This document shows positions 1-5,879 of a DNA stretch of 5,879 bases, in pieces. The position numbers and the translations under genes were made by a program. This stretch comes from Escherichia coli. GTDB taxonomy: Bacteria; Pseudomonadota; Gammaproteobacteria; Enterobacterales; Enterobacteriaceae. The notes beneath the pieces were generated by a model that did no database searches, had not been told where the DNA came from, and was given only the letters and a program-made list of their open reading frames with translations. The stretch is from NCBI RefSeq assembly GCF_003334815.1, contig NZ_QOWO01000072.1; one strand, 5' to 3'. The stretch's first letter is position 1. Every line of letters begins with the position of its first letter.

Positions 1-40
1 TTCGTACTAATCGCTTCAATCCAAAGAACTTCACTTTTCC

Positions 41-77
41 TTAGCGTGTGTTATCGCAGAAATGCCCACGGAACCCC
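41..77. repeat. Left copy of an imperfect 37-bp inverted repeat (partner at 5803-5839)
   Basis: Hand alignment: reverse complement of 41-77 matches plus 5803-5839 at 34/37 positions. The repeat contains the last 8 codons and TAA stop (51-53) of the 51..248 ORF. Confidence 0.7.
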
Positions 78-248
78 GGTTTGGCGTTTCCCTGCCAATA
101 TTTGATAGCCAACCCAGAGGATATAAACGCTAATACCTGCACTTAGAAGAGATAACATATCTTGGCCTAATTGACTTTGAAGTGGTTTGGTCATCTCTTC
201 GATTTTACTAACAACTTCGCTATTAAACTTTTCAAAGAAACCAGACAT
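51..248 (-). CDS. 65-aa membrane ORF resembling the N-terminal segment of VirB6/TrbL-family proteins (possibly a truncated gene)
   Basis: ATG at 248 preceded by AGGTGA, 4 nt after the stop of the upstream lipoprotein gene. MSGFF... then one hydrophobic helix (LSLLSAGISVYILWVGYQIL) followed by AGKR, the usual start of VirB6-type proteins, but it stops at TAA 51-53 where canonical proteins continue for about 250 aa. Confidence 0.4.
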   Translation of the reverse strand: MSGFFEKFNSEVVSKIEEMTKPLQSQLGQDMLSLLSAGISVYILWVGYQILAGKRQTGVPWAFLR

Positions 249-978: not shown

Positions 979-1728
979 TCAATTTTTTATAATCTTTGAT
1001 TGCTCATCTTTTTGAAACCAGAATTCAAGACGAACGACTTTTTTGCCTCTTTTTAATGGCTTCCACTGGATTATCCAATTATCTTTTTCGGTCAACTCTT
1101 TTACGGCAGGTTCTATCACCCTTTCTCTGAGTAATCCAAAGGTTTTTTTATAACTTTCAGGAGATTCCATTGCGTGATGAAAATCATCCAGCGATATAGA
1201 TAACCATCCGTTATTGTCTTTGTGGGTATTCATTTGCTCGAATAATTCAAGCAACCGCCATGAGTGAACAGAGCGCAGTCCGCAAGCCTGAGATAGCTGG
1301 TATTTAGTGAAATTTTCTTCCAGTTCGCATAGATAGGGGGTGACCTGTGGTGTGAAGCTCAAAACAACGTGCGCTTCACCTTCATTGTATTTATAAGCAC
1401 CTAACCATCTGATTTTCCAGACATCAACATCTGTTTCGCTTACTTCGTTTATTCTGAAGCTAATGTAGCGGTTAAAAAAATTGTCAGCAGCGATTTTTAA
1501 TTGTGAATACGCTTGTTTTAAAGGCATTCCAAATGTATTGGCGTATTCTTCAGCCGTGATTTTAATCGGGGTGTACTGTCCGCCCATTTTGGCTATTGCA
1601 GCAAAAATGATGCGTTTTTCAGCCAGTGACAGGCTTTGCGCTGCTCTCGTAATGGCATTGCTCATCACGATATTTTTCCCGCGCAGGTTCAAGGTCATGG
1701 TAATGGATTCAGTTTTTTTCCCTTTCAT
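979..1728 (-). CDS. repA: Rep_3-family iteron-binding replication initiator RepA
   Basis: Architecture matches pSC101/R6K-type initiators as remembered: NAITRAAQSLSLAEKRIIFAAIA (winged-helix 1), WKIRWLGAYKY...PYLCEL, SISLDDFHHAM...LEFWF. Preferred start is ATG 1728 (MKGKK, preceded by AGGCGGAGAG); the track ORF extends to 1782 and internal ATGs at 1698 and 1665 are alternatives. Stop TGA 979-981. Cognate iterons lie 130 bp upstream. Confidence 0.85.
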   Translation of the reverse strand: MKGKKTESITMTLNLRGKNIVMSNAITRAAQSLSLAEKRIIFAAIAKMGGQYTPIKITAEEYANTFGMPLKQAYSQLKIAADNFFNRYISFRINEVSETDVDVWKIRWLGAYKYNEGEAHVVLSFTPQVTPYLCELEENFTKYQLSQACGLRSVHSWRLLELFEQMNTHKDNNGWLSISLDDFHHAMESPESYKKTFGLLRERVIEPAVKELTEKDNWIIQWKPLKRGKKVVRLEFWFQKDEQSKIIKN

Positions 1729-1761
1729 CTCTCCGCCTAAATAGGTCAACTGGCACTTGGA

Positions 1762-1845
1762 AAAGTAACAGGTATCGGGCAACTGTAACGAAGATAAACG
1801 ATGTTATCGCACAAGTAAAGTAACATTGCTTGTTGCTGTTACTTT
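1762..1845 (-). promoter_or_regulatory. repA promoter/operator region with inverted iteron half-sites (candidate autoregulatory operator)
   Basis: Iteron core GTTACTTT occurs as AAAGTAAC at 1762-1769 and 1817-1824 and as GTTACTTT at 1838-1845. The pair 1817-1824 / 1838-1845 forms an inverted repeat with 13-bp spacer between the iterons and the repA start. Confidence 0.45.
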
Positions 1846-2589: not shown

Positions 2590-2934
2590 TCATCTAATGC
2601 TATGGTTGGTGACTTCTTTTTCCAGAGCCTTATTAACAAAAGCATTCAACGATAAATCTTCTTCCATCGCCATTTCTGCTACCCGACGATGCAGTTCTGG
2701 ATCAAGCCTGACGTTAAACACGCCTTTAAACGGGATATCAGGTTCCTTTCCATCCTCCACACAAGACTGTAAATACAGATCAACCGATGTTTTAAACTCC
2801 TGTTCCAGTTCAGCTAATGTAGAAGCCTCATAAGTTACCAGGTCCCGAATAAACGCCAGTTTTCCATACAGGACATTATTTTCAAAATCGGGTTCAACTG
2901 TACCTAAATATCCTTTATATTTTAAATGTTTCAT
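2590..2934 (-). CDS. hicB: HicB-family antitoxin (N-terminal HicB fold plus C-terminal ribbon-helix-helix DNA-binding domain)
   Basis: 114 aa; C-terminal FNVRLDPELHRRVAEMAMEEDLSLNAFVNKALEKEV is a typical RHH segment of HicB antitoxins. Start ATG 2934 overlaps the hicA stop (ATGA at 2931-2934); stop TGA 2590-2592. Confidence 0.8.
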   Translation of the reverse strand: MKHLKYKGYLGTVEPDFENNVLYGKLAFIRDLVTYEASTLAELEQEFKTSVDLYLQSCVEDGKEPDIPFKGVFNVRLDPELHRRVAEMAMEEDLSLNAFVNKALEKEVTNHSIR

Positions 2935-3179
2935 AATAATCCGGCCTCTTTCAGATTCTGTTTAATCGCTTTCAGCGTACCACCTTTAATATAACTTTCC
3001 GGATGTGGGCGATGCATTAATATGGTGTGGTTGATATCAGCATTGAAAAACCGCACTCTTGACCCCTGCATTTCTTTTTTGACATATCCCAAAGAGGAAA
3101 ACAAAACGACCAGTTCATCCCATTCAAACGTTTTTTTGCTGTTTAAAAACTTCGCCAGTAGTTTATCTGTTTTTCCCAT
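2931..3179 (-). CDS. hicA: HicA-family toxin (mRNA interferase)
   Basis: 82 aa; GSRVRFFNADINHTILMHRPHPESYIKGGTLKAIKQNLKEAGLL resembles the E. coli HicA core (GSNH...PRHP...LRKAILKQLGL, remembered). GGGGAG Shine-Dalgarno 3 nt upstream of the ATG at 3179; toxin-first order typical of hicAB. Confidence 0.75.
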   Translation of the reverse strand: MGKTDKLLAKFLNSKKTFEWDELVVLFSSLGYVKKEMQGSRVRFFNADINHTILMHRPHPESYIKGGTLKAIKQNLKEAGLL

Positions 3180-3193
3180 ACGCTCCCCTTGTT

Positions 3194-3229
3194 TGTAACT
3201 AATTATAGTTACAGTGTTGTTTTTGTCAA
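3194..3229 (-). promoter_or_regulatory. Consensus sigma70 promoter for hicAB with overlapping palindromic operator
   Basis: Minus strand: -35 TTGACA (3229..3224), 16-bp spacer, -10 TATAAT (3207..3202), about 23 nt upstream of the hicA ATG. Palindrome TGTAACT-aattat-AGTTACA (3194-3213) overlaps the -10. Confidence 0.55.
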
Positions 3230-3320
3230 ACGTGCCCTCAATGGAACATTTGAGCAGAAACTAAAGCTTGGAGACTCCCAAAATTAGAGAGGAATTACTT
3301 AAAGGCTGCAAAGAACCAAT

Positions 3321-3368
3321 GCAGGATAGACAATCCGATGTCAAATGGTACCATTCGATATCGGATTG
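3321..3368 (-). other. Candidate oriT: near-perfect 38-bp palindrome followed on the minus strand by a TATCCTG|C nick-like motif
   Basis: CAATCCGAT-gtca-AATGGTACCATT-cgat-ATCGGATTG at 3331-3368. On the minus strand the motif TATCCTGC (3328..3321) follows 2 nt after the repeat and fits the MOB_P-type nick consensus YATCCTG|Y. Lies in the divergent intergenic region next to a MobC-like gene. Confidence 0.35.
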
Positions 3369-3419
3369 TCCAAAAACAGGGTTTTTGCCTGTGCCTGCCG
3401 CAGGCTCTATGGAGTGAAG

Positions 3420-5710: not shown

Positions 5711-5802
5711 TGCTGCCGTCAGATAGCCATCAGCATTGCTTACGAATGTTAAAATAATGGCAAATTTTGATAGGTCCCAAACGAGATCTTGTAATGGGGT
5801 TT

Positions 5803-5839
5803 GGGGCTCCGTGGGAATTTCTGCGATAACACCCGCTAA
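5803..5839. repeat. Right copy of the imperfect 37-bp inverted repeat (partner at 41-77); an inverted, degenerate copy of the 3' end of the 51..248 ORF
   Basis: Plus 5758-5829 translates to WQILIGPKRDLVMGFGAPWEFLR-stop, versus YQILAGKRQTGVPWAFLR-stop at the C-terminus of the 51..248 ORF (encoded on the opposite strand). Nucleotide identity is 34/37 in the core. Confidence 0.7.
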
Positions 5840-5849
5840 GCGATTTCTC

Positions 5850-5879
5850 CCTGACGGAAATCACTTGTTTTCCGTCAGG
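5850..5879. repeat. Perfect hairpin/inverted repeat at the right window edge (11-bp stem, 8-nt loop)
   Basis: CCTGACGGAAA-tcacttgt-TTTCCGTCAGG; the stem contains the in-frame TGA (5861-5863) that closes the upstream extension of the VirB6-like reading frame. Downstream context is beyond the window. Confidence 0.5.

Follow-up and report, generated by a model that had tools for sequence, protein, structure and literature searches.

An overlapping-type hicAB toxin-antitoxin cassette on a small Escherichia coli plasmid, with a perfect sigma-70 promoter and a predicted HicB operator

Overview of the cassette

The 5,879-nt stretch of Escherichia coli DNA analysed here, referred to as the window, carries with a probability of about 85% a type II toxin-antitoxin (TA) addiction cassette of the HicAB family, of the overlapping-ORF type hicA^O B that is typical of IncX4 plasmids, on a 5.7-kb mosaic Rep_3/iteron plasmid. 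The assignment to hicA^O B rests on the overlapping reading frames, the lack of an internal terminator and the high identity to the pJIE143/IncX4 cassette. The cassette is real, ordinary and previously characterised, and its discovery value is small: such cassettes are annotated in hundreds of RefSeq plasmids, the TA function has been tested on IncX4, and the promoter is already a tool. The features of the cassette are listed below.

2590-2934, minus strand: hicB, antitoxin/repressor gene, 114 aa (ORF list, Pfam, PHROGs)
2931-3179, minus strand: hicA, toxin gene, 82 aa (ORF list, Pfam, PHROGs, AF2 model)
2931-2934, minus strand: ATGA, shared by the stop codon of hicA and the start codon of hicB (TCAT on the plus strand)
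3131-3137, minus strand: A7 homopolymer run, hicA codons 15-17
3183-3190, minus strand: hicA Shine-Dalgarno sequence AAGGGGAG, identified by inspection of the sequence
3194-3213, no strand: perfect palindrome TGTAACTA-N4-TAGTTACA (8-N4-8), predicted HicB (RHH) operator, from sequence and conservation
3202-3207, minus strand: -10 hexamer TATAAT (sigma-70 promoter scan)
3224-3229, minus strand: -35 hexamer TTGACA (sigma-70 promoter scan)

The first-pass annotation, made from the sequence alone, had proposed a hicAB module with the toxin gene first. This is borne out by profile searches, which place both proteins inside the two families, and by the HicA model with its Foldseek matches. HicA matches Pfam HicA_toxin (PF07927; E = 7.5e-12, query 20-81, model 1-58 of 58) and, over its full length, phrog_8887 'toxin' of PHROGs (7e-34), and HicB, encoded directly downstream, matches Pfam HicB (4.6e-20) and, again over its full length, phrog_9151 'HicB-like antitoxin' (1e-48). 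NCBIfam gave no match for HicA, and its relatives are called 'HicA family toxin' in RefSeq; PADLOC gave no match for either protein.

The overlap of the two genes allows translational coupling of hicA and hicB, and the same 4-nt overlap is also present at the loci of relatives. The ATGA had been noted before and is present, but it had been taken as generic to hicAB, whereas hicA^O B is the one subfamily of which it is the hallmark (Lin et al., NAR 2025, PMC11878559); the genes of E. coli K-12 are separated by a gap of 45 nt. A scan of the window found no terminator-like site inside 2590-3179. The A7 run is the site of a frameshift in the E. coli plasmid NZ_CP122591.1 (98.7% identical), in which one extra A disrupts hicA and whose gene table lists HicB and lacks HicA. 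With the hicA reading frame broken in this nearest relative, the plasmid can evidently be carried without the toxin.

The HicA toxin and its missing histidine

The AF2 model of HicA, with a pLDDT of 95.3, has the dsRBD-like alpha-beta-beta-beta-alpha fold (helix 20-29, strands 32-36, 41-46 and 51-56, helix 66-79), preceded by an extra N-terminal helix (3-13). In a Foldseek search of the PDB with this model, the HicA structures 1whz, 6g26_E and 6g26_F took ranks 1-3 with probabilities of 0.99-1.0 and 4c26 took rank 5 with 0.75 (TMt 0.57-0.73); the E-values reach only 0.02-0.5 because the HicA domain is small. The protein shares 98% identity with cluster P0001, the HicA of IncX4, and belongs to a clade of long HicA proteins, which are marked by the additional helix at the N-terminus and by GSR (39-41) and HRPHP (56-60) motifs. 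For this clade a search gave 2,692 clusters (50% identity) at E <= 1e-3, present in enterobacteria, Acinetobacter, Piscirickettsia, Leptospira and on Sinorhizobium pSymA, and no structure has been solved for it. The HicAB of S. meliloti was considered as the nearest tested relative and set aside, the characterised pair being the chromosomal SMc04441/SMc04269 and not the pSymA copy that resembles the HicB described here.

The catalytic histidine of HicA toxins lies in a G-S-H motif and corresponds to His23 in E. coli, His24 in B. pseudomallei and His28 in Y. pestis HicA3 (PMC11594946). It is absent from the HicA of this plasmid, which reads G39-S40-R41 and has no histidine from residue 36 to residue 50. 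The close relatives all have GSR, and among 146 representatives of the clade that were newly retrieved about 128 carry GSR, a minority GSA, GSK or GAR, and none GSH; in the HxPHP motif of the clade, H56 is nearly invariant and H59 invariant. R41 and the catalytic histidine are equated from the register of the motif and from hhalign, whose agreement was weak, rather than from a structural superposition. The hhalign comparison with K-12 HicA (probability 1.5% and 13%) was used solely for the absence of a histidine near the GS, and sequence searches of the PDB, started from HicA, from HicB and from two profiles of HicA, returned no significant HicA/HicB match and no residue-level alignment of R41 with the histidine. 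Because the GSH histidine is missing, the biochemical activity of the clade is assumed. At somewhat less than even odds, we tentatively suggest that the GSH-less toxins of the clade have an active-site arrangement that differs from that of the HicA proteins studied so far, for RNA cleavage or otherwise, with the HxPHP motif and the additional N-terminal helix in place of the histidine, and that the centre of the enterobacterial HicB box is the -10 hexamer. The missing textbook histidine is a question that can be addressed cheaply by mutagenesis.

The HicB antitoxin

HicB carries a C-terminal ribbon-helix-helix (RHH) domain, to which several comparisons point. Weak Pfam matches to Antitox_RHH and RHH_1 cover residues 73-107, Arc-like repressor PHROGs match residues 72-112 (E = 1e-4), and a CopG-family PDB chain aligns with residues 73-111. 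The model of HicB is of low confidence (pLDDT 59) and shows a strand (73-77) and two helices (79-91 and 96-112) in the RHH pattern; its N-terminus, a candidate for the partial RNase-H-like domain that binds HicA, is modelled as four strands and a helix (4-60), with pLDDT < 50 at residues 1-33. No match to Pfam HicB_lk_antitox was found in HicB, nor a solved structure detectably similar to it by sequence. In the HicB alignment the predicted DNA-reading residues are conserved, R76 without exception and F73, N74 and V75 almost without exception; the single member without the motif upstream of hicA that is described below (locus L015) has LMLR in place of FNVR. Residues 1-111 are 98% identical to IncX4 HicB (tblastn), which is annotated as WP_000681613.1 in a representative IncX4 record, and the final residues differ because the homology stops 9 nt inside hicB.

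Promoter and candidate operator

The perfect TTGACA and TATAAT hexamers on the minus strand, with their spacer of 16 nt, were confirmed by the sigma-70 promoter scan. They form the sole 12/12 match in the window, the nine other matches scoring 9/12, and the number of perfect promoter sites to be expected in a stretch of equal length and composition is about 0.008. The spacer is 17 nt in nine of ten other distinct cassettes and 16 nt in the remaining one (L014), and the homology to the IncX4, IncI2 and IncF cassettes stops immediately upstream of the -35. A perfect promoter of hicAB has already been described in the literature: PhicA of IncX4 is a perfect consensus promoter, 'strikingly' so, and has been used as a strong expression promoter (PMC11537010). 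Judging from the position of the -10, transcription would start at about 3194-3196, which would leave hicA a short leader, some 15-17 nt long.

The palindrome spans the -10 and this predicted start, and the -10 hexamer consists of the final two bases in one arm together with the 4-nt centre. It had been described as TGTAACT-N6-AGTTACA over the -10 and as the likely HicB binding site. Both heptamers are present at 3194-3200 and 3207-3213 and the overlap stands, but the arms are 8-N4-8 and not 7-N6-7. Arms of 8 bp alone are not rare, as the window contains five such palindromes with spacers of 0-8 at three loci against about one expected. What makes this palindrome significant is where it lies and that it is conserved among relatives. 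The motif TGYRACTA-N4-TAGTYRCA has one match in the window (3194-3213), even when three mismatches are allowed, and neither a second operator nor extra half-sites comparable to BS1/BS2 of Y. pestis were found in the window; Rfam likewise gave no match in it. Upstream of hicA, TGYRACTA-N4-TAGTYRCW is present in all 11 distinct related cassettes examined, which come from plasmids, chromosomes and a likely prophage, while its flanks are not conserved except for TTGAC. The motif occurs in Photorhabdus/Xenorhabdus contigs, beside a P2-type capsid gene, at IS-flanked loci, in IncX4, IncI2 and IncF plasmids and in Acinetobacter, and once in a 33-kb IncX4 plasmid.

Since the -10 hexamer forms the centre of the palindrome, which usually doubles as the -10 among the related cassettes, promoter function by itself would be expected to bring some conservation. 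It is nevertheless improbable that no protein binds the palindrome and that it is conserved merely through its overlap with the -10 and start of a strong promoter: the outer TGYRAC/GTYRCA, which sigma-70 does not need, are the best-conserved columns, whereas the N4 of the -10 core varies (TAAT, CACT, TTGT, CTGT, AAAT, TTAT, TAGT, AATT). The twofold symmetry is also retained, as both arms shift symmetrically to TGCAACTA/TAGTTGCA by paired T-to-C and A-to-G changes in L012 and in the Acinetobacter locus L005. In Acinetobacter the palindrome is placed 51 nt away from the start codon and covers the -35 of a different promoter and not a -10, and the conservation is therefore independent of the -10 role. 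A regulator other than HicB might occupy the site, either a host factor or the second small DNA-binding protein encoded on the plasmid (a small HTH protein, 618-902). The chances of this are slimmer still, as the neighbouring genes differ among the motif-bearing loci, nothing but HicA and HicB accompanies the motif throughout, and of these two only HicB has a DNA-binding domain.

The motif conserved in 11/11 cassettes, together with the Arc-like RHH domain of HicB, thus supports the earlier proposal of a HicB site. The palindrome that covers the -10 very probably serves as the operator for HicB, which would act by occluding the promoter. The operator sequence was not found in the searchable literature, and PMC11878559 mentions no operator or palindrome. 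The predicted operator TGYRACTA-N4-TAGTYRCA is shared by the hicAB of mcr-1 IncX4 plasmids and of some IncI2 plasmids and could aid the design of curing or derepression strategies.

With HicB as the regulator, the cassette would work as follows. The single perfect sigma-70 promoter would give a bicistronic mRNA with a short leader, from which hicA would be translated first, yielding a toxin with a dsRBD-like fold that is presumed to be a ribosome-independent RNase. Translation of hicB would be coupled to that of hicA via the ATGA, and HicA would be neutralised by direct binding of HicB. The C-terminal RHH domain of HicB would bind the 20-bp palindrome, whose centre is the -10 and whose promoter-proximal arm would lie over the transcription start, so that HicB or HicAB on the operator would exclude RNA polymerase and keep a very strong promoter shut. 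A drop in HicB or an excess of HicA would let the promoter fire at once and replenish the antitoxin.

Comparison with characterised systems

Over 2599-3230 the cassette shares 94% nucleotide identity with the hicAB of IncX4 mcr-1 plasmids, represented by about 400 IncX4 records, and the IncI2 and IncF copies are 87% identical to it. HicA and HicB are each 98% identical to those of the hicA^O B of IncX4 (pJIE143, p14EC007a), with which the cassette also shares the ATGA overlap, the lack of an internal terminator, the -35, the -10 and the distal operator arm (Lin et al., NAR 2025, PMC11878559). The two differ in the spacer (16 nt here, 17 nt in IncX4), in the operator, both arms of which are perfect here while the proximal arm in IncX4 is TAGTTGCA, and in the replicon, a small Rep_3/iteron plasmid as opposed to a conjugative IncX4 plasmid. 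In p14EC007a, HicA is toxic and is rescued by HicB (PMC11878559, Fig. 5D). The hicA and hicB transcripts are similarly abundant in the IncX4 cassette, there is no internal terminator, and hicA mRNA is not above that of purA; its advantage in plasmid competition is weak (PMC11878559). Curing of IncX4 is eased by HicB and RelB supplied in trans, and PhicA of that curing study is the same promoter, its HicB being WP_000681613.1, as at locus L003; the spacer is given there as N17, and the embedded palindrome or operator is not described (Microbiol Spectr 2024, PMC11537010). The hicA^T B of IncI2 mcr-1 plasmids (p45) is likewise a plasmid-borne addiction module, but it shares less than 26% protein identity with the cassette described here, has an intergenic gap of 24 nt and contains an intrinsic terminator inside the module, by which the toxin:antitoxin ratio is raised (PMC11878559), whereas none was found here within 2590-3179.

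The RHH-type HicB proteins of Y. pestis (HicB3) and B. pseudomallei bind inverted repeats over the -10 (PMC11594946). These systems are likewise toxin-first operons. Their antitoxin has an N-terminal HicA-binding domain, which may have a counterpart here, and, as here, a C-terminal RHH domain, and the inverted repeat over the -10, which is BS2 in Y. pestis and a single palindrome in B. pseudomallei, has its counterpart here. Their proteins show no detectable similarity to those of the present cassette in the PDB sequence search. Furthermore, there is one operator here as opposed to two in Y. pestis, the genes overlap instead of lying 174 nt apart (Y. pestis/B. pseudomallei comparison), and the HicA described here is without the GSH histidine. 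The hicAB of E. coli K-12 has the same family, the same gene order and autorepression by HicB, which is predicted here. It differs in the HTH domain of its HicB, in place of RHH, in its two promoters (P1, Sxy/CRP-S, and P2, repressed by HicB; PMC11594946), in the intergenic gap and in its HicA of 58 aa with His23. The likeness to the RHH repressors Arc and Mnt of phage P22, suggested by the Arc-like PHROGs matched by the C-terminus of HicB, is one of mechanism only, and HicB has an additional, predicted toxin-binding domain. By analogy, two RHH dimers on neighbouring half-sites would suit a twofold-symmetric operator of about 20 bp that overlaps the promoter.

Iterons and the operator

1861-1944: four copies of the 21-bp iteron CCCGAAAAAAGTTACTTTTAA

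The first-pass annotation had pointed out that AGTTAC is common to the palindrome and the iterons and had raised a possible cross-talk between RepA and the hicAB promoter, while flagging that the match could be a coincidence. The shared 6-mer is real: AGTTAC occurs at 1870, 1891, 1912, 1933, 2833 and 3207 and GTAACT at 1949 and 3195, that is, in all four iterons (1870-1933), in both operator arms (3195, 3207) and in an inverted copy at 1949. Rep_3-family initiators elsewhere are autorepressors that act via inverted partial iterons. RepA might accordingly bind the half-sites of the hicAB promoter, or HicB the iterons, which would couple replication to TA expression, but this is the least probable of the alternatives considered and the idea of such cross-talk is clearly rejected. 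The likeness of iteron and operator ends at 6 nt, with no 7-mer in common, and is statistically unremarkable, given that a 6-mer is shared with the iteron by 21% of the other 20-mers of the window and by 12% of random 8-N4-8 palindromes. The best ungapped match of the iteron to 3181-3235 is 11/21, which equals the median of the window. The operator is also found on an IncX4 plasmid with unrelated iterons (TAAACATGAGAGCTTCCTCGGT) and a Rep 19% identical to RepA here, and at chromosomal, IS-flanked and likely prophage-associated loci, which indicates that it travels with the cassette. The promoter-proximal arm has AGTTGC and not AGTTAC in IncX4, IncI2 and IncF, and conversely the same replicon, its iterons identical, is found in Providencia, where both hicAB and the motif are absent. 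The 6-mer match between operator and iteron is, judged from these sequence comparisons, due to chance.

Elsewhere on the plasmid, the Tn3-like end sequences match unannotated stretches of E. coli plasmids.

The hicAB cassette and its known relatives

The pair had been annotated on the first pass as a toxin-first hicAB module with an ATGA overlap, and both open reading frames and the overlap are present:

hicA, 2931-3179, minus strand: 82-residue toxin gene
hicB, 2590-2934, minus strand: 114-residue antitoxin gene
Shine-Dalgarno sequence AAGGGGAG, 3190-3183, minus strand: read directly from the sequence, inside a ~15-nt leader

The HMM search suggested for the two families agreed with the assignment (Pfam HicA_toxin, 7.5e-12; HicB, 4.6e-20), as did full-length PHROGs matches to 'toxin' for HicA (7e-34) and 'HicB-like antitoxin' for HicB (1e-48). 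HicB also gave weak RHH matches at residues 73-107 (Pfam) and Arc-like repressor matches at 72-112 (PHROGs). Sequence searches detected no solved structure similar to HicA or HicB. The AlphaFold model of HicA, built from 101 homologues (pLDDT 95.3), has a helix-strand-strand-strand-helix core with an extra N-terminal helix, and in a Foldseek comparison with the PDB ranks 1-3 were all HicA structures, namely TTHA1913 (1whz) and B. pseudomallei HicA (6g26_E, 6g26_F), with a fourth, 4c26, at rank 5. For HicB the model has low confidence (pLDDT 59), with a C-terminal strand-helix-helix still visible at 73-112.

At 2599-3230 the window shares 94% identity with hicAB from ~400 IncX4 plasmids, many being mcr-1 plasmids, and 87% with the copies that some IncI2 and IncF plasmids carry. 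Both proteins reach 98% identity, HicB to its IncX4 counterpart and HicA to the IncX4 cluster P0001. Lin et al. (NAR 2025) named this type hicA^O B, in which the ORFs overlap and an internal terminator is absent, and which is found mostly on IncX4 plasmids (PMC11878559). In the IncX4 plasmid p14EC007a, HicA is toxic and neutralised by HicB, hicA and hicB are similarly abundant as mRNA, hicA mRNA shows no increase relative to purA, and hicAB confers only a small advantage in plasmid competition (PMC11878559). A plasmid-curing study described the IncX4 hicA promoter as 'strikingly' perfect (-35 TTGACA, N17, -10 TATAAT), put it to use as a strong promoter, and made IncX4 curing possible by providing HicB and RelB in trans (PMC11537010). 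The main points of the first-pass annotation are therefore correct, but not new, because the cassette type, its toxicity and the perfect promoter were already published (PMC11878559, PMC11537010) and the system is already known.

Within hicA, codons 15-17 contain an A7 run (3131-3137). In the related locus L001 (NZ_CP122591.1, ~2880) A8 stands in its place, which leaves hicA frameshifted and hicB intact, and the gene table of NZ_CP122591.1 lists HicB alone of the pair. Slippage at this run could serve to switch the toxin off, or the difference could be a sequencing error in NZ_CP122591.1.

The motif at the presumed active site of HicA

Characterised HicA toxins need the histidine of a G-S-H motif (His23 in E. 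coli, His24 in B. pseudomallei, His28 in Y. pestis; PMC11594946). The window HicA has G39-S40-R41 at the motif and no His in residues 36-50; the equivalence of R41 and the catalytic His is tentative, drawn from the register of the motif and from hhalign, whose result was weak. All close relatives share GSR and HRPHP, the latter at residues 56-60 here. A HicA profile search of 1.84 billion representatives returned 2,692 clusters (defined at 50% identity) at E <= 1e-3. Among 146 newly retrieved representatives of the HicA clade, GSR was present in ~128, a minority had variants such as GSA, GSK or GAR, and none had GSH, while H-x-P-H-P was nearly invariant; copies on S. meliloti pSymA and on Piscirickettsia and Leptospira plasmids have the same motifs. 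This clade is large, has the extra N-terminal helix and, as far as sequence searches reach, has no detectable solved structure. Given the toxicity of the IncX4 member (PMC11878559), the clade probably uses another catalytic arrangement.

The promoter and the predicted HicB operator

The perfect promoter hexamers reported earlier were found on the minus strand, TTGACA at 3229-3224 and TATAAT at 3207-3202, with a 16-nt spacer. This was the sole 12/12 site in a promoter scan of the window, all others scoring 9/12, and ~0.008 perfect sites are expected at the window's composition. Homology with the IncX4, IncI2 and IncF cassettes stops directly upstream of the -35, and the promoter is therefore part of the cassette. 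The perfect consensus is typical of plasmid-borne copies (the window, IncX4, IncI2, IncF and the related locus L012), and the copies from Photorhabdus, Xenorhabdus and Salmonella and the one beside the capsid gene reach 8-10/12, as read from the upstream alignment.

The palindrome over the -10, previously given as TGTAACT-N6-AGTTACA, has arms that are one base longer each, TGTAACTA-N4-TAGTTACA at 3194-3213. On the coding strand, the distal arm contributes its last two bases to the -10, whose other four are the centre of the palindrome, and the proximal arm spans the predicted transcription start at ~3194-3196. The upstream regions of 11 distinct cassettes with HicA 65-98% identical were compared, from IncX4, IncI2 and IncF plasmids, a locus adjacent to a P2-type capsid gene, two Photorhabdus loci, a Xenorhabdus contig, an IS-flanked Salmonella locus, two metagenomic types and an Acinetobacter plasmid. 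TGYRACTA-N4-TAGTYRCW lies upstream of hicA in every one of them, in surroundings that are variable except for the TTGAC of the -35.

The palindrome might be read as simply part of the promoter. Against this reading, the N4 centre is variable (TAAT, CACT, TTGT, CTGT, AAAT, TTAT, TAGT, AATT), with the TAnnnT of a -10 retained, and the arms are better conserved. Two cassettes have TGCAACTA/TAGTTGCA, a symmetrical change in both arms. The Acinetobacter palindrome is located 51 nt 5' of the start codon over the -35 of another promoter, so that its conservation is independent of a role at the -10. The motif is present once in the window, even at three mismatches, and once in an entire 33-kb IncX4 plasmid. 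In the alignment of relatives, the RHH strand of HicB has an invariant R76 and nearly invariant F73, N74 and V75, and L015, the sole related locus without the motif, has LMLR at positions 73-76. Together, these observations argue for a protein-binding site. The RHH-type HicB operators of Y. pestis and B. pseudomallei are likewise inverted repeats overlapping the -10 (PMC11594946). The earlier suggestion of a likely HicB site is supported by the comparison of the 11 cassettes, which now defines 3194-3213, by inference, as the predicted HicB operator, where HicB would repress hicAB by occluding the promoter.

The operator and the RepA iterons

The replicon comprises:

RepA, 979-1782, minus strand: Rep_3-type initiator with distant RepM/RepE matches
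iterons, 1861-1944: four repeats of 21 bp

AGTTAC/GTAACT is indeed common to operator and iterons, and had led to speculation about cross-talk between RepA and the hicAB promoter, which we reject as chance. Operator and iteron have a 6-mer in common and no 7-mer; such a 6-mer is shared with the iteron by 21% of the window's other 20-mers and 12% of random 8-N4-8 palindromes, and the 21-nt iteron, aligned without gaps to 3181-3235, matches at best 11/21, the median for the window. Operator and replicon are also found apart. In an IncX4 plasmid that carries this operator, the iterons are six copies of TAAACATGAGAGCTTCCTCGGT, AAAGTTACTTTT is absent and the Rep is just 19% identical to the window RepA, and in IncX4, IncI2 and IncF one operator arm reads AGTTGC, not AGTTAC. 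The Providencia alcalifaciens plasmid p2939_90_4 (L023) has the same replicon, identical iterons and a different TA pair, with neither hicAB nor the operator motif. On this sequence evidence, the replicon and hicAB form independent modules, and the 6-mer is most plausibly a coincidence.

Three inverted partial iterons adjoin the rep gene and flank the array: AAAGTAACA-N11-TGTTACTTT at 1817-1845, a copy at 1761-1782 that is iteron-like, inverted and overlaps the start of the long rep ORF, and AGTTAC-N10-GTAACT, which closes the array at 1933-1954. As sites of RepA autoregulation, these are more plausible than the hicAB promoter. The 7.5-kb L023 has the rep gene twice under one protein accession (1510-2256 and 5498-6244), and its four-iteron array likewise occurs in two identical copies. 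Part of its replicon appears to be duplicated, because the second rep copy lies ~3,990 bp from the first, close to the size of a related Providencia plasmid of 3,997 bp.

Plasmid context and contig ends

Window 78-5804 matches LR792480.1, a circular 5,718-bp Salmonella enterica plasmid, at 100% identity and NZ_CP122591.1, an E. coli plasmid, at 98.7%. The window plasmid is a mosaic, which also carries:

ddp1: NCBIfam DDP1 equivalog, 6e-69
IncX-like genes: EexN, a small HTH protein, VirB5- and VirB6-like proteins
virB6-like gene, apparently split: N-terminus 248-78, rest 5802-4970

Because the NCBIfam DDP1 match covers residues 26-190 of the long ORF, the true ddp1 start is placed at ~3420. Between ddp1 and the hicA promoter, a 42-bp near-perfect palindrome (3329-3370; 22-nt arms, 91% complementary) may serve as an oriT-type element or be bound by DDP1. 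A perfect hairpin at 537-569, with 15-bp arms (ATTACAATTGCTGAT / ATCAGCAATTGTAAT), a 3-nt loop and a following TTTTTG, separates the gene of the EexN-like lipoprotein (253-516) from that of the HTH protein (618-902) and has a terminator-like score on the plus strand. The stretch at ~2140-2230 resembles the ColE1/pBR322 backbone in the region of the primosome assembly site; an Rfam search of the whole window gave neither RNAI nor any other RNA family.

The contig ends (window 1-82 and 5798-5879) are not plasmid sequence. They contain 38-nt inverted repeats at 40-77 and 5803-5840, 92% complementary, reading GGGG...CGCTAAG with their outer ends toward the plasmid, which look like Tn3-family terminal repeats, and GGTTT occurs as a 5-bp direct repeat at 78-82 and 5798-5802 that looks like a target-site duplication. 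From these repeats, a Tn3-family element therefore appears to have inserted in the virB6-like gene, with the contig breaking inside the element. Matches to the 77-nt contig end, at 90-99% identity, fall in unannotated stretches of 145 plasmids of E. coli and Salmonella.
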